Positions 9,505-40,357 of a DNA stretch of 64,000 bases are shown in pieces. How positions within the stretch are numbered: the stretch's first letter is position 1; every line of letters starts with the position of its first letter. This DNA comes from Squalus acanthias (lineage: Eukaryota), in the NCBI GenBank assembly GCA_030390025.1, contig CM059432.1, positions 95,296,001 through 95,360,000 on the forward strand. The letters run 5' to 3'. Position numbers and translations under genes: made by a program. The notes under the pieces were generated by a model. It was not told the DNA's origin. It saw nothing but the letters and a program-made list of their open reading frames with translations, and did no database searches.

Positions 9505-11246
9505 ACGGGGAAATGGCAGAGACTCTGAACAAATATTTTGTATCTGTCTTCACGGTAGAAGACACTAACAACATCCCAATAATGGATAATCAAGGGCCAC
9601 AGGGAGGGGGGAACTAAATACAATCACTATCACTAAGGAAAAGTACTTGGTAAAATAATGGGACTAAAAGACGACAAGTCTCCTGGACCAGATGGCCTGC
9701 ATCCCAGGGTCTTAAAAGAAGTGGCTGCAGAGATAGTGGTTGCAATATACCAAAATTCCCTGGACTCTGGAGAGGTCCCAGCGGATTGGAAAACCGCAAA
9801 TGTAACACCCCTATTTAAGAAAGGAGGGAGACAGAAAGCAGGAAACTATAGACCAGTTAGCCTAACATCTGTCATTGGGAAAATGCTGGAGTCCTTCATT
9901 AAGGAAGCGGTAGCAGGGCATTTGGAAAATCATAATGCAGTCAAGCAGAGTCAGCATAGTTTTATGAAAGGGAAATCATGTTTAACAAATTTGCTGGAGT
10001 TCTTTGAGGATGTAACGAGCAGGGTGGATAAAGGTGAGCCAGTGGATGTGGTGTATTTGGATTTTCAGAAGGCATTCGATAAGGTGCCACATAAAAGGTT
10101 ACTGCATAAGATAAGAGCTCACGGATTTGGGGGTAATATATTAGCATGGATAGAGGATTGGCTAACTAACAGAAAGCAGAGAGTCGGGATAAATGGGTAA
10201 TTTTCCGGTTGGCAAACGGTAACTAGTGGGGTGCCACAGGGATCGGTGTTGGGGCCTCAACTATTTACCATCTACATTAATAACTTGGATGAAGGGACCG
10301 AGTGTAATGTAGCCAAGTTTGCGGATGATACAAAGATGGGTGGGAAAGCAAGTTGTGCAGAGGACTCAAAGAATCTGCAAAGGGATATAGACAGGCTAAG
10401 TGAGTGGGCAAACATTTGGCAGATGGAGTATAATGTGGGAAAGTGTGAGGTTATCCACTTTGGCAGGAAGAATAAAAAAGCAAATTATTATTTAAATGGA
10501 GAGAGATTACAAAATGCTACAGTTCAGAGGGACCTGGGGGTACTTGTGCATGAAACACAAAAAGTTAGCATGCAGGTACAGCAAGTAATCAAAAAGGCAA
10601 ATGGAATGTTGGCCTTTATTTCAAAGGGGTTGGAGTATAAAAGCAGGGAAGTCCTGCTACAACTGTACAAGGTATTGGTGAGACCACACCTTGAGTACTG
10701 CGTACAGTTTTGGTCTCCTTATTTAAGGAAGGATATACTTGCATTGGAGGCAGTTCAGAGACGATTCACTAGGTTAATTCCAGAGATGAGGGGGTTGACT
10801 TATGAAGAAAGGTTGAGCAGGTTGGGCCTATACTCATTGGAATTTTGAAGAATGAGAGGTGATCTTATTGAAACATATAAGATACTGAGGGGGCTCGACA
10901 AGGTAGATGCAGAGAGGATGTTTCCCCTCGTGGGGAAATCTAGAACTCGGGGGCATAGTTTCAGAATAAAGGGTCGCCCTTTTAGAACTGAGATGAGGAG
11001 GAATTTCTTCTCTCAGAGGGTCGTAAATCTGTGGAATTCTCTGCCCCAGAGAACCGTGGAGGCTGGGTCATTAAATACATTTAAGGTGGAGATAGACAGA
11101 TTTTTGCAAGATAAGGGAGTGAAGGGTTATGGGGAGCGGGCAGGGACGTGGCTTTGAGCCCAAGATCAACCATGATCTTATTGAATGGCGGAGCAGGCTC
11201 GAGGGGCCAAGTGGCCTATTCCTGCTCCTATTTCTTATGTTCTTAC
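9505..11246 (+). mobile_element. Young 5'-truncated CR1 LINE (RT domain, 3' UTR, tail); pseudogene with two in-frame stops
   Basis: [46 protein letters not shown]. Stops at 10198-10200 and 10846-10848. Tail TTTCTTATGTTCTTA. Confidence 0.95.
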
Positions 11247-19047: not shown

Positions 19048-19759
19048 GGGCTGGATTTTCATTGACCCGTGGTGGCGGGTTTGGAGGCATGTGGGGGGCT
19101 AAAATTGCGAAAACTGGCGGGCGGGCACAAGCCCGCCTCCATCCCACCTCCACGCAATTTTCATTAAATCGTGTCTGCTGGTCCCGACTCTGTCCCGCCT
19201 CTGAGAGGCGGGATAGGCTGTTAAGACCCTTAACAAGCACTAAATTGCCTCTATAATGCCATTTTGAAAGGCCTTTGTGATTTTAACCCTTCTTCTACGT
19301 GAAGCACGCCTGTTCTGAACCACAAATGTGAAACCTGGCGGGAGCACATTTGGATAGCTGGCTGGCTGGCTGGCTGGCTGGCTGGATGCATATATGGATG
19401 GCTATGTGGATATGTGGATGGATGCATATATGGATGGATGGGGAGGAGACATATCTGGATGTGGTGGTGTAAAATATCTGGGAGCAGACTTAGGGCTGCT
19501 GCTCATTTTGCATCCAGGTCCTCTCACAGCAAAGGCCAAGCAGTCTCTGAAGACCTTCAATGCAGCAGCAATGATGACATCATCAGAGGCAACTTTCAGA
19601 CTGAAAACACTAATTGGTTCATGGGTTCCCACATGCTGGAACTCAATTGCCCAATTAGGTGAAAATTGCATCAATCTCCCACATCCAATTGCAGTCGGGT
19701 GGATAACACGAAAAGTGGATGACACGACCCCAACCCGCCCCAGTATCAAAATCCAGCTC
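19048..19759. mobile_element. Harbinger-type MITE (intact copy of the family at 26313)
   Basis: TIRs GGGCTGGATTTT / AAAATCCAGCTC; TTA at 19045-19047 and 19760-19762; internal (GGCT)n/(GGAT)n tract. Confidence 0.9.
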
Positions 19760-25572: not shown

Positions 25573-28080
25573 TGAAGTAGTGGAGAGGAGATATAAGGTG
25601 CACAGAGGTCTGAGAGAGACAAACAGCACTAGAATTAAAGAGTAGTTCATAAATAGATGGGATCAGACAGGGGTAAATGCGAGGCAGACTAAGATGGGGT
25701 TAGAGTGCAAGTGTGTGAATGCCCGGAGTGTGGTAAATAAAGTTGGTGAACTGCAGGCGCAAAGGATTATGATAGAGTGGCAATAACGGAGACCAGGCTC
25801 AAACAAGGAGAGGAATGGGCACTTAATATTCCTGGCTACAATGTATTCAGGAAAGATAGGGAAGGAAAAAAAGGAGGGGGGACTGGCAGCATTGCTGATA
25901 CTGTGGCAGCAGTAGAAAGGGATGATGTACTTGAGGGCTCAAAGACAGCATCTATTTGGTTAGAATTAAGGAACAATAGAGGAGCTATTATGCTGCTGGG
26001 TATATACTATAGGTCACCAAATAGTGGGAAGGCAATAGAGGAACAAATTTGCAGGCAAATTGCAGAAAGTTGCAAGAAATTTAGAGTAGTGATAATGGAC
26101 GACTTCAATTATCCTAATATAGACTGGAAAAATAACAATGTAAAGGGCAAAGAGGGGGAGGAATTCCTGAAATATGTACAAGAGAACTTTTTTGATTAGT
26201 ATGTTTCCAGCCCAATGAGGAACGAAGTGGTGCTGGATCTAGTTCTGGAGAATGAAGTGGGGCAAGTGGAACAGACTGAGCAAGTAAACCTCTATTTATA
26301 AACAGAGGCATAGGGCTGGATTTTCATTGACCCGTGGAGGTGGGTTTGGAGGCGTGTGGGGGGTTAAAATTGCGAAAACTGGCGGGCGGGCACGAGCCCG
26401 CCTCCATCCCGCCTCCACGCAATTTTCATTAAATTGTGTCTGCTGGTCCCGCCTCTGTCCTGCCTCCAAGAGGCGGGATAGGTCGTTAAGGCCCTTAACA
26501 AGCACTAAATTGCCTCTATAATGCCATTTTGAAAGGCCTTTGTGATTTTAACCCTTTTTCTATGTGAAGCACGCCTGTTCTGAACCACGAATGTGAAGGC
26601 AGGCTGGCTGGCTGATCTGGGAGTGGTGGTGCAAGGGAGACATATCTGGGAGTGGTGGTGCAAGGGAGACATATCTGGGAGTGGTGGTGCAAAAATATCT
26701 GGGAGCAGACTTCGGGCTGCTGCTGCTCATTTTGCATCCAGGTCCTCTCACAGCAAAGGCCAGGCAGTCTTTGCAGAACTTCAATGCAGCAGCAATGATG
26801 ACATCATCAGAGGTGACTTTCAGACTGAAAACACTAATTGGGTCATGGGTTCCCACATGCTGGAACTCAATTGCCCAATTAGGTGAAAATCACATCAATC
26901 TCCCACATCCAATTGCAGTCGGGTGGATAACACGACCCCAACCCGCCCCAGTATCAAAATCCAGACTCACAGGTTGAATTGACTCCTCTACTCTTTGCAC
27001 GAGTGAGGCGTGGAGCAGTGGCTGTTGCCTGTGCATTCTCTGGCTGCAGAGCTCTGGAGCAGTCGCCCTTGGAGAGGAGCTGTTGGGGGACTTGTCTGTG
27101 TCTCTCTGCGAGGAGGAGGAGGAGCGCCTGCTACTACTGCTGCTGCTACAGAGGTGCCTGGAGAGGAGAGGAGAGGAGAGGAGAGGTCTCACTCTCTCTG
27201 TGCACAGGAGGAAGAGGAGAGAGTGGAGACCACATCCAGCACTGCTGTTGCTGCTGCTACTGAAGTGCCAGAAGAGAGAGAGGAGAGGAGAGGAGAGAGA
27301 AACCAACACCAGGGAAGCTAATCCCATCACTGCCTCCCCAACTGGTCTCCATTGCAAGAGAGGGAGAGAGGGAAGGAGAAGGAACAAGCCTTATTAACAT
27401 CTGCTTGGAAGGAGGGAGAGCCATCTGGAAAACAACTGCAGGTGGGTGTAAAGGTGCACTCTCCAGGAGACTTTGTATTTAGGTGGGGGGAGGAAAAGAA
27501 GGACAAAAACATCCTGGGGTGTGTGTGTGTGGCTCTTGCAAAAAACTAGGCCACACACACCACCAGTAAACACCCCTCCTCATTCCTTGACCTGGGATAG
27601 CTGGAGCTGCCCAGGCGAAGTCCTCAACTAATTATCTAATTTCAAACATCGTTAAGACTGAGCCTGGGCATCTCCAGCTTGCTTTTTTCCGAGGTGAAGA
27701 CATCTTCTCCCCCCACCAGAAGAGGAGACCATCAACAGAGACTTTTCTTTTACATTGGAGAGTGCACCCCCGCGAACACCCACCCACCATCTTGAGTGGA
27801 GACCCAACCCCTGTGACCTCCCTCCTTCCCACCCCCCTTTCTCTCTCTCTTTGTCTCTCTCTGCCTCTCTCTCCATAGAGGCACCTCTTTTAACTGTATC
27901 ACCTATTGAGCAGAGGGGAGAAGGCCCCTCTCCTAATTAAGTCACCAAGGGGAGGGGTGTGCCTTCACGTATTAAAAAGCTCCCTCTGCTTGGGAAAAAA
28001 CTTATAAAACCAAGGCCAATCAACCCCATCCGGCCTGTGACTAGGGGTGGGTGTAGCCCTTCTTAAAGATCAACCCCACG

Positions 28081-30137
28081 ATGGCGAGCCCATCAACGGC
28101 GGCGGCGGGGCCAGCTAGATCATGTGCAGGCGTGGCAGCCACAGCCACAGCGAATTCCACTGCTTCTGCTGCCCCGTCGCCGTTCCGGCTAATTACAAAA
28201 AAACACTCACCCCAACATGACGATAGAGTCGTGCGTAAAAGCCATGGCTGGGGTTGTCGGCCCTTCAGCCATCGTTGCCGCCTTGAAAATGTACGGGAAG
28301 GCTGTGTTCTTCCTGGGGTCGGAGCGGGCGGTGTCCCTGGCCATAACCAAGGGACTCACCGTGAGCGGGATCATCTTGCCGGTGGACCCTCTCGAGGCCA
28401 CCGCGCAGAGGGTCATAATTTCTAACATCCCGCCCTTTGTCACGGGTGAGCTCCTTCTCCCCCACCTACGTCAACTGGGGGAGGTGAGGTCGGAGATTAC
28501 ACCGATCCCGCTCGGCTGCAGGGAGGCCAGCCTCCGGCATGTCCTCTCCTTCCGGCGCCAAGTCTTTATCCAGCTGGCGCGGGAGGAGGAGACCGAGGAC
28601 GCCTTCGCGGTCCACCATGAGGGGACCGCCTACCGCGTCTTTTGGACATCGGACGGTGTGCGGTGCCACGCCTGTAAGGAGGTGGGGCACGTCCAGAAAA
28701 ACTGCCCCGCCTCCAGGGCCACCGGAACATCAAAGGCGGCCAAGGCTGGCGCCACCGCCACCCACCCACCCCCCTATCCTACCCGCACAGCCACAACAAC
28801 AGATGCGAGGGCAGCGCCGGAGGCTAATGCCATCACGGCCTCCAGCGGGGGGGCGGGAGAGCGTCCGGGTGGGGTGAAGAAGCGGCGCAAGACCAAACAC
28901 CTGAGGGCGGATCCCCTCGTGGAGCGAGAAGGCAATGATGTTTTGCCGGAACTCTCACCCGCGTACCTCGAAGAGCTGACCGCAAAATCAAAGAGTGGGG
29001 GGTGCCTCGTGCCCAGGCCCGCAGCCACGACCGCCGAGGCGGTAACACCAAGACCTGCGGCCGGGCTCGGGCCCGAGGGAACCACAGAAAAGCCCGCTCG
29101 GCGGGGGGGCGTGGGAGATAGTATGGAAATCTCCCAGACTCCGGGTCCCTCCAAACCAAAAAGGAGGCGTGACCACCTGGTGGAGGAGGAGGAGGACCAG
29201 GAAGAGCGGGGTCCCTCCCCGCAGGGGGAATCATCGCTCGCCGCGGGTAATGCGCCCCCTCCCACTGTCACTACCATCATCACTCGGCAGGAGTTGCCTG
29301 TCCCCCGGGAGGGCACGACAGATGAATCTGTCCTGCCTGTGCCTCCCGGGGATGGGGAAGGGACCCTGCTCGTGGGGGGGGCCGCGGAACTACCCGCGGC
29401 AGTCGCAGAACCGTCACCTCTCGCCATGTTGAGTGCCCTGGGGACTGGGGCGGGCGAGGCCGAAGAGGCCGAGCTCGCCCATGACAGTCAGGATATCTCC
29501 CAGGAGCTGCTCGACATGGTGGAAACCTTACATGAGGTTTCCCAGCCTGCTGGGTCGGTGGCTGATGGTGGTGAAGAGGGGGGCCCCCTGAATCCGTCGC
29601 TGGCGCCGGGGGACCTGGGATCAGATTTCTCCCCGGTGTCCCCGTGCGCCCCGGTGCCTGGGGCGGGGGGCGGGCCCTGAACCGCCGCCGCTTCCCGACC
29701 CGGCACCCCCAGAGGAGCCCAGGGAGAACTCCTCTGCTGCCGATCCTGGGGGTGGGATCGGGACAGAGGCGGGGCCGGCCGACGACGACCCCCCAGAGGA
29801 GGACGGGGACCCGGCGGAGGGCACTGAGGGCGAGTCGGACTCCGTCGCCAGTGAGGCGGCGGATACCCTCGTGCCCCTCGCCGAGTCCTCCCTCATCCCC
29901 ATTGCAGTGCTCCGGGACTTTGTGGCCACGTGCCAGGGTCGCCGTAACAAAATCAGGCTGGCCCTCGACAGGTGGTCAGATCCGGCGCTGCTCGTCGGCT
30001 CCGCCTGTGCCGCGGTCATAACCTTGGGCACGGACGAGGGCGTGAGTCCGTCTGAGCGACGCCGGATGAGTCAGTTCTTCGTTGGGCTGAAAAGGGAGTG
30101 GCGGTCGACTAGCGGCCGCTCTCCCTCCTCCCGTTAG
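28081..30137 (+). pseudogene. Tx1 ORF1 (gag-like zinc-knuckle protein), frameshifted
   Basis: ISNIPPFV, HVLSFRRQVFI, CHACKEVGHVQKNC (CX2CX4HX4C) and a long low-complexity C-terminus, spread over several frames. Confidence 0.88.
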
Positions 30138-30167
30138 GTTAAGTAGAGGTTGCACTATGCACTTGTC

Positions 30168-33100
30168 ATGAAGATAACCATAGCCAGCCTCAACATCAAC
30201 AGCAGCAGGGAGGCGCACCGCAGATTTAATAACTTCTCGGTCCTCCGGGACGGAAGGTATGCGGTGTGCTTCCTGCAGGAAACCCACACCGTTCCGGGAG
30301 ACGAGGCCACGTGGCTCCTGGAGTGGCAAGGAGGGGTCAGCATGAGTCGCCTCTCCAACAATTCCTGCGGGGTGGCCATCTTGCTGGCCCCACATTTTCA
30401 GCCGGAGATCTTGGGGGTCAAGGAGCACGTGCCGGGCCGCTTGCTCCAGGTCACTGTTCGCCTGGGGGATGTGCCGCTTCATCTAGTGAACGTGTACGCC
30501 CCCCAGGCCGGCGTGCAGCAAGCGCGCTTCTTTGAAGAAGTGTCCGCTCTTCTAAGCTCCATCGACGTTGGCGAGTGCATCGTCCTCGGGGGGGATTTTA
30601 ATTGTACCCTCGAGGTGCGGGACCGGTCGGGCCCCCCGCCGTGCCAGGCGGCGGTGGAGAAGTTGAGGGACCTGGTCGGGTCCCTCGACTTGGTGGACGT
30701 CTGGCGAAATCTCCATCCTGACTCCAGCGCCTTCACGAGCGTGAGGTCTGGAGGAGGAAGGTCCAGAATCGACCGCCTTTATATTTCCCGGGCGTACGTC
30801 TCCTGCATTCCGGCGGCCTCCATGCGGCCGGTGCCGTGCACGGACCACCACCTGGTGTGGGTGGAGCTCGCTCCGTTGCGTGCGCGGGGGGGTCCGCGTA
30901 CTGGCATTTTAACAACCTGCTGCTGGAGGACGAGTGGTTCCGGGATTCGTTTCGCCGGTTCTGGGCCGACTGGAGAAGGAAGCAGGGGGGGCTTCCCCTC
31001 CTTGAGGCTATGGTGGGACGTGGGCAAGGCTCACGTCCGTCTCTTCTGTCAGGAGTACGCGAGGGGGTCGACCAAGAGGCGGGAGGGCCGGGTCGGGCGA
31101 TTGGAGAAAGAAGTGCTCGACCTGGAGTCCCGTCTCGGTCAAGTTGTCGAAGACCCGGCCCTGCGGAAGGTGTACGAAGAGAAGAAGGGCGCGCTGAAGG
31201 ACCTGCAGCTGGTCGGGTCCCGAGGCGCGTACGTGAGGTCGCGGATCCAGTTCCTGCGGGACATGGACCGCGGCTCCCCCTTCTACTTGCTGGAAAAAAG
31301 ACGAGGGGTCCGTAAGCAGCTCTTGGGGCTGCTGGCTGACGATGGATCTCTGGTCTCGGATCCGGAGGGGATCAGCGCGGAGACCTGGGCCGATTACGGG
31401 GCTCTGTTCTCTCTGGATCTGTCCAGCGAGGATGCGTGCAGAGTTTTGTGGGAGGACCTGCCGAAGGTCAGCCCGGAGGGCGCTGAAAAACTGGATGCTC
31501 CGCTAAGCCTGGCGGAGCTGACCGGCGCCCTCGACCAGCTCTCAAGGGGAAAATCCCCGGGGCTGGACGGGCTGACCGCGGAGTTCCACAGGGCATTCTG
31601 GGATGTCTTGGGGGGGTGACTACGCGCGGGTCCTGGGGGAAGTCTGGCGACCGGGGAGATGCCCCTCTCTTGGCGCAGGGCGGTGATCGTCCTGCTGCCA
31701 AAGAAGGGCGATCTCCGCTTATTAAAAAACTGCCGCCCGGTCTCCCTCCTCAGCACGGACTATAAGATTTTTGCCAGGGCCATGTCTGCCCGCCTTGGCA
31801 CCGTGCTGGCCCACATGATCCACCCCGACCAGTCCCGGGCCGGAGCATCCATGACAACATCCATCTGGTCCGGGACCTGATCCACCATTCCCAGAGGGCT
31901 GGTCTGTCGTCCGCCTTCCTTTCCCTAGATCAGGAGAAGGCGTTCGACAGGGTGGATCACGAGTACCTTCTCGGAACTCTGCGCGCATTCGGGTTCGGGA
32001 CGCATTTCGTCGCCCGGATCCAACTTCTGTACGCCGCCGCGGAGTGTCTGATTAAAGATAACTGGTCTTTGACGGTGCCCCTTCGCTTCGGGAGGGGGCT
32101 ACGTCAGGGATGCCCCATGTCCGGTCAGTTATACACCGTTTGCGTGGAGCCTTTCCTGCGCCTCTTGCGGAAGAGGTTGACGGGACTGGCTCTGCAAGGG
32201 CCGGGCGTGGAGGTCGTCCTCTCGGCTTACGCCGATGACGTGCTCCTCGCGGTCACGGATTCCGTCGACTTGCGGAGGATGCGAGAATGCCAGCAGATTT
32301 AATCGGACGCATCCTCTGCCAGGATCAACTGGGAGAAATGTTCTGGACTCCTGCTGGGCCAGTGGCGGGTGGACTCCCTGCCGGAGGAGTTCAGGCCTTT
32401 CGCCTGGAGCACCACTCACCTCCTCTACCTGGGAGTCCACCTCCGCCCTGCCGAGGACGCCTGGCCGGCGAACTGGCAAGAGCTGGAGGCCAAAGTCACC
32501 GCTCGCCTAGGGCGCTGGACAGGACTGCTCCGAGTGTTGTCCTACAGGGGTCGAGCGCTGGTCATAAACCAGCTGGTGGCCGCCATGTTGTGGTGCTGGT
32601 TGGTCACTTTGATCCCTCCCCCTGCGTTTGTCGCCAAGATACAGAAGAGGCTCATCGACTTCTTCTGGGACAAAAGGAAGCACTGGGTCTCTGCCGCGGT
32701 TCGGAGTCTCCCGCTTAGGGAGGGCGGTCAGGCGCTGGTGTGCCTTCGCACCCAGGTGGCGACTTTCCGTCTTCAGACACTGCAGAGATACCTGTACGTA
32801 GAGAATCCTCCTCGATGGTGTGCGATGGCGACGTATTTCTTCCACCAGCTGCACGGCCTCAATTACGACACGCAGCTCCTGTTTGTGCTATTGGGCGGAA
32901 CGCGTGCCTACCTGTGGGAGCTGCCTGTCTTCTACCAGGAACTGCTATGGGTCTGGAATAAGGTTGCCTCCAGGCAGAGTTCTCCCTCGTCAGGAGTGGC
33001 GGCTCTCCTTTGGGAGCCGCTGCTCAGGAATCCGCACCTCCATGACCGCGGGTTCGGCTGGCTGGTGGAGGGCAGGGCTGTGCCTGGCAAGGTGACCAGA

Positions 33101-34053
33101 GTTGGGGACCTGCTCGATGGCGGAGGAGCGGGCTGGATGGTGCCGGAGGAGTTGGCGCGGTGCCTGTCCTGGGTCGACGTCTGGCGCGCGGCCAAAACCA
33201 TCGGGCCGCTGAAAGTGGCACTGGGCCCCGACTCCACTAGGTGTATCGAGGAGGCTCAGGCACGTGGGGCGATCCCGTCCGAACTGACCACCGTTCGGAC
33301 GGAATTCCTCATCGGCGCGCGGCCCCGAAACCCCTCTCGGGAACCGGCACCTCACAACTTGAGCCTTCTCGGGAAATGCCCTCCGTGCCCTTTAGCTCTG
33401 CGCGGAGGGGTTTCCTGTATGGGCTGCTCCTGCACACTCTCCACTTTGTCATCTTCGCCTACCGACCGGACACGCCTTGGCGTGCCATCCTGCCGTCCGG
33501 CGGAGGCGGAGGTCCCCAATGGAGGGCTCTCTACGCGGGAGTCCTCCCCTTTTCTATTGGGGACATGGCCTGTAGGGTGTTGCATGGAGCAGTCCCGTGC
33601 AATAAGTTTCTAAGTAGGTTCACGGACTCCCAGGCCGCCTGCCATTTCTGCGGCCTAGTGGAGTCCGTGTTCCATGTGTATATGGAGTGCGAGAGGTTGC
33701 AGCCCCTGTTTTATTATTTGAAGGGGCTGCTCCTTGATTTTTCGCTACACTTCAGTCCCACGCTCCTGATCTACGATCACCCGGTGTGGAGGGGAGCGGG
33801 CAGGTCGGAGGACCTCCTCGTAGGACTGCTCCTGGGCCTGGCCAAAGTGGCCATTAATAGGTCCAGGCAGCGGGCGGTCGAGGGGGTCGTCTGGCCCGAT
33901 TGCCTGCCTCTCTTCCGTGGCTATGTTCGCGGCCGGGTGGCCCTGGAGATGGAGCATGCGGTGTCCGCCAGCAAGCTCGAGGCCTTCTGGGACAGGTGGG
34001 CGCCGCGGGCACTGGAGTGCATCATCTCGCGGGCCGACGAAATTTTAATTTAA
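30168..34053 (+). pseudogene. Tx1 ORF2 (APE endonuclease, reverse transcriptase, zinc finger), disrupted
   Basis: SLNIN, FLQETH, VNVYAP, GGDFN, SRIDRLY, TDH, KSPGLDGL, RPVSLLSTDYK, RQGCPMSG, AYADD, CHFCG..HVYMEC. Several frameshifts and a TAA at 32300-32302. Confidence 0.93.
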
Positions 34054-34964
34054 TCTGATTTATTTGAAGGTCCCGTAAAGTGAATGGGTATGACAAAAGA
34101 TGTCAAAATCCAGCCCATAGAGTACAAAAGCAAGGAAGTTATGCTAAACCTTTATAAAACACTGGTTAGGCCCAGCTGGAGTATTGTGGCCAATTCTGGG
34201 CACCACACTGTAGGAAGATGTCAAGGCCTTAGAGAGAGTGCCGAGGAGATTTACTAGAATGGTATCAGGGATGAAAGACTTCAGTTACAGAGAAACTGGA
34301 GTTATTCTCCTTAGAGCAGAGAAGGTTAAGGAGAAATTTGATAGAGGTGTTCAAAATCTTGAAGGGTTTTGATAGAGTAAATAAGGAGAAACTGTTTCCA
34401 GTGGCAGAAGGATCGGAACCAGAGGACACAGATTTAAGGTAATTGGCAAAGGAACCAGAGGTGACATGAGGGGAAAAAAATTACACAACGAGTTGTTATG
34501 ATCTGGAATGCACTGCTTCTATGATTCTATAAATCGATGTAAAGTATTATATTACTTCTGTGTAGATCTAAAAAATAATGTAGACACTGCAATTTTTTTC
34601 AATTATAGAATCATAGAATAATACAGCACGGAAGGAGTCCATTCAGCCCATCGCGCCTGTGCTGGCTCTTTGAAAGAGCCATCAATTAGTCCCACTTATA
34701 ACTTGAATGTACTGTATTTTGCAAAAACCATAATGTTCCAAAATGTTAAGGGTAATTTGTAAAATATATGTGGTTTGTAAGACCATGTAATTTCTAAATC
34801 AATGGCATTTACAGAGTAAACAATAACCAAAATTCTGCTTCCATTCCACAATTACAAAGTCGCAGAGTGCCATCGGTTCTCTAACCTTGTCTTATTTCTA
34901 AATGTATACAAGCAGTGAAATGGTAGATTTGCATTATAGAAGTAATTTTCTGAGCATTTAATGG

Positions 34965-39525: not shown

Positions 39526-40357
39526 GGGCTGGATTTTGTCAATGGGGACGTGATGGAGGTGGGACTCCCACTTTTTGGGTTGTAGTCCCGCCTCCATTGA
39601 CTTGTGGCCAACCCACTCGATTTTCCCTTGATTGACCTTGTTGAGCCCGCCCAGCGGGCTCAGCAGGCCAATTAAGAGCCACCGGCAACAGGTGACGTCA
39701 CAGATTGACATTTCATCTGTCAACAGCTTTTGACAGATGAAATATCAGCGTTTGACAGCTCCTTGAAGCTGTCAAACACTGACAATCTGTCCTCTAAGTT
39801 AATTCCTTCCTCTCAGGCTGATTTAGAGATCTCTGCAGAACAAAAAGCAGAGGCTGCAGCTTTTGACAGCTCAACGGCCATTCTGCTTTCTGTGCCGGTG
39901 AGATTTCTGACTCCCGAGACCTGAAGGGCTGACACCTGCAGGAGGAAGTTAAGGTAAGTAAAACTTTTTTCCACACTTTACACTTACCTTACACACTTAC
40001 CTCTACACACATGCACCCATCACTCACCTGCCCACCGGACATATCGACCCCTCCAACCCCTGCAGACCCACGGTCCGCCTCGCTAAAACAGTGTGGTTCG
40101 GAACTGTCGGGAAGCCCACACTTCAGGGCTAAAAATAGGGATTAGGCAAAAAACTGCCTGTTAACTACCTGTTAACAGGCAGTTTATTGGTGCTAATCCC
40201 CTTCCCACCTCAGGGAGGTGGGTCCCAGCACAGGTCGGGTACCCGCCTCCTGTGAAATTGGCATGGGGGCGGGATGGGTTCGGGACCCCCGAATCTGCAA
40301 TTTTAACCCCCCACACGCCTCCAAACCCGCCTCCACGGGTCAATGAAGATTCTGCCC
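39526..40357. mobile_element. Harbinger-type MITE
   Basis: TIRs GGGCTGGATTTT / AAGATTCTGCCC; ATT at 39523-39525 and 40358-40360. Body similar to 43174-43999. Confidence 0.88.

Follow-up and report, generated by a model that had tools for sequence, protein, structure and literature searches.

A Tx1-clade long interspersed nuclear element (LINE) of 7,138 bp, with two open reading frames (ORFs), occupies positions 26965-34102 of the 64-kb window analysed here, the whole stretch of Squalus acanthias contig CM059432.1 from 95,296,001 to 95,360,000. It lies inside the right 12-bp terminal inverted repeat (TIR) of a Harbinger-like miniature inverted-repeat transposable element (MITE), which itself interrupts a CR1 remnant. 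The order of nesting at this locus is CR1, then MITE, then Tx1, three insertions deep, and this triple nesting is genuine. We put at about 0.45 the probability that the LINE represents a small Tx1 subfamily preferring this TIR sequence, which is common to several abundant MITE families; this reading is drawn from one copy with its flanks. The odds given for targeting and for its rivals are judgements, not computations.

The junctions are exact. As the earlier note had placed it, TCAAAATCCAG stands at both flanks of the LINE, at 26954-26964 and 34103-34113, with zero bases of extension either way. In this form the target duplication is 11 bp; it is 9 bp (AAAATCCAG, from 26956 on the left) if the final TC is counted as LINE sequence. 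At a fixed junction, any specified 11-mer would arise by chance with a probability of about 2e-7. The insertion point is 12-14 bp from the right end of the MITE, whose body runs from 26313 to a broken inner right end at 26964, without the terminal CCC, and carries seven CCCGCC motifs. Comparison within the window shows that the outer 12-bp TIRs, GGGCTGGATTTT (26313-26324) and the rebuilt AAAATCCAGCCC (34105-34116), are perfectly complementary. All these features are given on the forward strand. The triplet ATA, the 3-bp target duplication of the MITE, borders the composite at 26310-26312 and 34117-34119 (unstranded), confirming the earlier description of a complete outer TIR and ATA rebuilt downstream.

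When 26313-34119 is deleted in silico, a CR1 ORF2 frame reappears (FINRGIEYKSKEVML): the left ATA lies inside the CR1 ORF2 remnant and the frame picks up again at the right ATA. Across the junction the restored frame shares 71% amino-acid identity with the window's CR1 copies at 10615-10686 and 42922-42851. Twenty public sequencing runs contain parts of the window, none of them as much as half of its words, with no RNA run among those listed. In four of them, X1 and X2 from one organism and X6 and X7 from two others, all with short contigs, we looked at individual positions. Uninterrupted CR1 at the MITE insertion point was found in three of the four, in 129 (X1), 252 (X6) and 252 (X7) contigs. 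As removing the composite restores the CR1 frame and contigs carry plain CR1, the ATA duplication is genuine. The host CR1 itself (25750-26312) passes from endonuclease-like coding to late-ORF2 sequence about 20 bp left of the MITE, and this near-direct joint implies a large internal deletion.

All parts of the LINE lie on the forward strand. Its 5′ untranslated region (UTR; 26965-28080), bounded by the duplication and by the first ATG at 28081, contains GGAGA repeats and a 49-nt direct repeat (90%) at 27138-27297. ORF1 (28081-30140) translates in three frame pieces and includes a CCHC zinc knuckle; its main piece has no Pfam match, and its Atlas look-alikes carry zf-CCHC with a score of 0.94. 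An upstream ORF1 with a CCHC knuckle is part of the Tx1 plan. ORF2 (30168-34053) encodes an apurinic/apyrimidinic-type (APE) endonuclease and a reverse transcriptase (RT), with Pfam matches to Exo_endo_phos (E 8e-11), RVT_1 (E 2e-23) and, weakly, zf-RVT, and is collinear with residues 1-1290 of Xenopus Tx1L ORF2 at 44-48% identity. The 3′ UTR (34054-34102), 49 bp long and without a poly(A) run, could fold into a small hairpin together with the bases at the start of the target. Although full length, the copy is dead, since ORF2 contains four frame changes (near 30880, 30985, 31830 and 33370) and two in-frame stops (31617-31619 and 32300-32302). Self-BLAST of the element found no long terminal repeats, and the 64-kb window contains no second Tx1 piece.

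The endonuclease is 45% identical to that of Xenopus Tx1L over 233 residues. In a tree of the window sequence and 39 of 120 hits, with no L1 outgroup included, it joined skate, horn-shark and one further sequence with support of 100/100, and it is 75% identical to the horn-shark piece. Turtle, Tx1L and sturgeon rows came next out, with moderate ultrafast bootstrap values of 86-94. With APE preceding RT in ORF2, a CCHC ORF1, a target duplication without long terminal repeats and grouping with Tx1L, the element belongs where the earlier note had put it, in the Tx1 clade. Elsewhere in the window, an RT-coding stretch at 9664-10281, 25-28% identical to the Tx1 ORF2, lies upstream of a CR1-like piece at 10615-10773.

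Two other TIR elements bear on the identity of the host. An empty MITE of the same family, about 5% diverged and flanked by TTA (19048-19759, forward strand), aligns end to end with the left part of the interrupted copy, except in the central repeat region; there are differences at 17 of 285 and 10 of 270 aligned bases, and one TIR mismatch. The centre of the interrupted copy consists of 2.7 perfect copies of a 29-mer (26615-26692), that of its sister of a short-unit microsatellite stretch (about 19355-19445). Given the base differences, the other central repeat, the TTA duplication and the TIR mismatch, the sister is a paralogue that models the empty right end, not the pre-insertion allele of this locus. 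Its earlier use as the pre-insertion state therefore holds for the form of an empty MITE, but not for this site. The third element, 832 bp long with an ATT duplication (39526-40357, unstranded), belongs to a related family with one common end. That end shares 60-116 bp with the MITE left end while the opposite end is unrelated, which suggests end-swapping between MITE families; the TIR is thus common to more than one family. Removing this element restores a repeat also present at 34605-34666.

All three elements have short TIRs and 3-bp duplications (ATA, TTA and ATT), and for two of them precise excision restores the host repeat. In two elements the flanks fit the palindromic pattern A-N-N-Y / R-N-N-T in full; in the third, three of the four positions agree. 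The same pattern is found in the Harbinger3_DR consensus. Because of the short TIRs, 3-bp duplications and flank pattern, Harbinger-like MITE seems the best label, and the Harbinger host proposed earlier is supported in that qualified form. Non-autonomous elements related to Harbinger3_DR likewise have short TIRs, a 3-bp duplication, a palindromic flank preference and a repeated subterminal motif (PMC3016246, PMC9710019, PMC13668399, PMC9179366). Unlike in those elements, the duplications ATA and ATT lie outside the TWA consensus of PIF/Harbinger (PMC13668399), which fits only TTA, one of the three.

A preference for the TIR is supported by the rarity of the site, by the habits of the Tx1 clade, by an endonuclease close to Tx1L in identity and grouping, by a tail that is not confined to this locus and, weakly, by the folding of that tail with the target (both described below). 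Together, the TIRs of the three elements account for 0.11% of the window. AAAATCCAG occurs at five of their six ends and once elsewhere in the window, leaving out the copy after the LINE, and only 2 of 69 TCAAAA sites and 2 of 173 TTTT[AG]A sites fall inside TIRs. Many Tx1 families prefer a target, and Tx1L, Tx1-Mar and Tx1-9_AMi prefer DNA transposons (PMC4494074). If the element followed the known LINE mechanism, its APE endonuclease would have nicked the bottom strand at 5′-CTGGATTTT/GA or 5′-CTGGATTTTGA/TA, the freed end would have primed reverse transcription and a second nick would have followed CCAG.

The endonuclease differs from that of Tx1L in its beta-hairpin loop (30735-30770), a region which helps to select the target in L1 grafting experiments (PMC1950540). 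The loop has 8 residues and is glycine-rich. It has 7-8 residues in the three nearest relatives, and their clade is mostly glycine-rich, while it has 11 residues in 77 of the 87 hits, out of 120, in which it could be located. The element thus does not have the 11-residue loop of Tx1L, although loop length by itself does not decide specificity. The short loop may mark a cartilaginous-fish lineage with an altered way of reading its target.

The public runs bear on how common such elements may be, on the understanding that summed depth is not copy number. ORF2 relatives (at least 85% identical) are very abundant in all four runs, with summed depths of tens to hundreds of thousands in most bins, whereas summed depth at tail position 34075 is about 430-625. 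That position has no cover in X6 and X7, but a shared variant there in 6 contigs of X1 and 8 of X2 places the tail beyond this locus. The tail depth, far below that of the ORF2 relatives, suggests a small subfamily inside a large group. No LINE copies were found in viral contigs, metagenome contigs or prokaryote genomes; one scan of metagenome contigs gave 157 pattern hits, none of which was confirmed. None of the 24 matches listed (4,069 more exist) has a loose end at either LINE junction, which carries no weight either way.

The insertion has changed the MITE end. The three elements together (2.2 kb) contain CCCGCC 20 times, and the remaining 54.7 kb outside the LINE contain it 31 times; each element has a copy 17-26 bp from its right end. 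The Myb-like protein of Harbinger3_DR binds a subterminal 9-bp motif according to one paper (PMC9710019), while another places its binding at the TIR (PMC9179366). By analogy, CCCGCC is a candidate for a subterminal Myb-binding motif. The LINE displaces the outer TIR 7.1 kb from this motif: the rebuilt outer end has only 14 MITE bases and no CCCGCC within 300 bp, while the inner end keeps the motif without the terminal CCC. With the TIR and the motif parted in this way, the insertion has probably put the MITE end out of action rather than created cargo.

Several points weigh against a preference for the TIR. There is only one insertion, and it was chosen as striking; the published criterion for a target-specific Tx1 family is a single type of target found in over 20% of flanks (PMC4494074), and the copies with known flanks here number one. 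With a loop of 8 residues rather than 11, the stringency of Tx1L is not transferable to this element. As ORF2 relatives are very abundant and the examined UTR places far lower in summed depth, other families, with different targets or with none, may use the same enzyme. The tail hairpin is a post hoc observation: over the full UTR, 994 of 4,000 random flanks give an equally good fold, and the whole-region z of -1.5 is not significant. The site can equally be read as an L1-like TTTT/GA nick with A-tail priming, for which no TIR recognition is needed. We regard it as quite possible, at something short of even odds, that the insertion was relaxed or off target, made by an L1-style nick at a short T-rich site or by an enzyme with some other usual repeat target, and that it met the TIR by chance. 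The RNA would then end in a small stem-loop and a few A's pairing with TTTT, and the TIR does contain TTTT/GA. The 9-bp form of the duplication puts the nick there, near the L1 consensus 5′-TTTT/AA (PMC1950540), and for the inner hairpin stem TCA is all that is required from the target. Of the TTTT[AG]A sites in the window, about 1% (the 2 of 173) are within TIRs, so with ORF2 relatives this abundant some chance TIR hits are expected genome-wide. For any one insertion, however, the chance is low, at 0.1-3%; no poly(A) run was left at the junction; and many Tx1 families whose flanks have been studied are selective (PMC4494074).

The tail itself offers another route to the TIR. The family's RNA might read into TCAAAATCCAG or have taken it up, and home by pairing with the nicked strand rather than by protein recognition. 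At its end, the tail has a 10-mer in two near-copies overlapping the duplication. The fold of its last 19 bases with the target beats those with 3,882 of 4,000 random 11-mers and with 65 of 67 other TCAAAA sites, a weak result. For R2, specificity is said to gain from transcription together with the target (PMC4494074). We consider this route unlikely, as the pairing is weak and was noticed post hoc, and nowhere else in the window does the tail find a match of more than 13 bases. Derivation of the 49-bp tail from another MITE end was considered and is unsupported within the window, and Rfam gave a single chance-level match, far under its gathering score. About as unlikely is the cargo idea of the earlier note, taken here to mean that a composite of MITE and LINE formed elsewhere and was moved, perhaps multiplied, by Harbinger transposase acting on the outer TIRs. 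Those TIRs and the ATA duplication are indeed perfect, and the LINE is full length, with X1 summed depths of 449-479 at 5′ UTR places against 625 at the tail. In X2, however, depth over the 5′ UTR reaches only about a fifth to a third of that at the tail, and the composite lacks CCCGCC in its last 300 bp. The MITE end is also joined directly, with no LINE between, to this CR1 position in one contig of X1 and two of X2, weak evidence with sides of 23-25 letters, and this joint (34115-34150) has depths of 106 (X1) and 87 (X2), above most contigs listed. It could stem from an empty allele or from separate MITE insertions into that CR1 site. The missing motif and the LINE-free joint, weak as the latter is, leave the cargo idea weakened. 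As a separate observation, the CR1 site may be a repeated landing spot for Harbinger elements, and its flanks fit their palindromic preference.

A preference for the TIR could be part of a wider picture, in which a cartilaginous-fish Tx1 subfamily with a short glycine-rich loop reads the 12-bp TIR across many Harbinger MITE families and disarms each end it hits by parting the TIR from the subterminal binding motif, possibly helped by tail pairing. We offer this fuller account only tentatively and hold it to be less likely than not.

The earlier note overstated the novelty of such targeting. Tx1 targeting of DNA transposons, Harbingers included, is already published, and only a TIR as the target would be new. 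The nearest precedent is Tx1-9_AMi of crocodilians, also a Tx1-clade LINE, which prefers Harbinger elements across three related families (PMC4494074). It inserts about 300 bp from the Harbinger 5′ end, whereas the element described here lies 12-14 bp from the right end; its preference was established from many copies rather than one. Tx1-Mar and SINEU, also of crocodilians, resemble our candidate in preferring an abundant non-autonomous DNA transposon; their target is Mariner-N4_AMi, with SINEU copies near position 240, and Tx1-Mar groups with Keno (PMC4494074). Tx1L of Xenopus laevis is, like the present element, a two-ORF APE-RT LINE with a collinear ORF2 that lies in a non-autonomous DNA transposon, in its case Tx1D, a non-autonomous piggyBac (PMC4494074, PMC1950540, PMC6719617, PMC1635306). 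It differs in the superfamily of its host, in the bases after the nick (AGTT against TACT or GATA here) and in its longer loop, and stringency has been shown biochemically only for Tx1L. Human L1, whose APE nicks at a T-tract/purine junction that would fit the 9-bp form of the duplication (PMC1950540), is only distantly related: the best L1-derived structure match has an E of 3e-21, and there is no poly(A) run here.

In the sources consulted, the known DNA-transposon targets of Tx1 are described as internal sites or without a position (PMC4494074 and others), and we found no report of a TIR-targeting Tx1 in the literature searched, which leaves out Repbase and most subscription papers. If the preference is real, the element behaves in the manner of Tx1L, Tx1-Mar or Tx1-9_AMi, the TIR is a new class of target for the Tx1 clade, and one LINE can draw on a very large number of landing sites over several MITE families, probably immobilising them. 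If it fails, the locus is an ordinary triple nesting.

Further TIR-like ends lie at 1177, 1271, 2118, 4956, 8600, 18578, 18816 and 62304. Those at 1271 and 2118 point towards each other across 848 bp, and their 3-bp flanks mismatch by one base.

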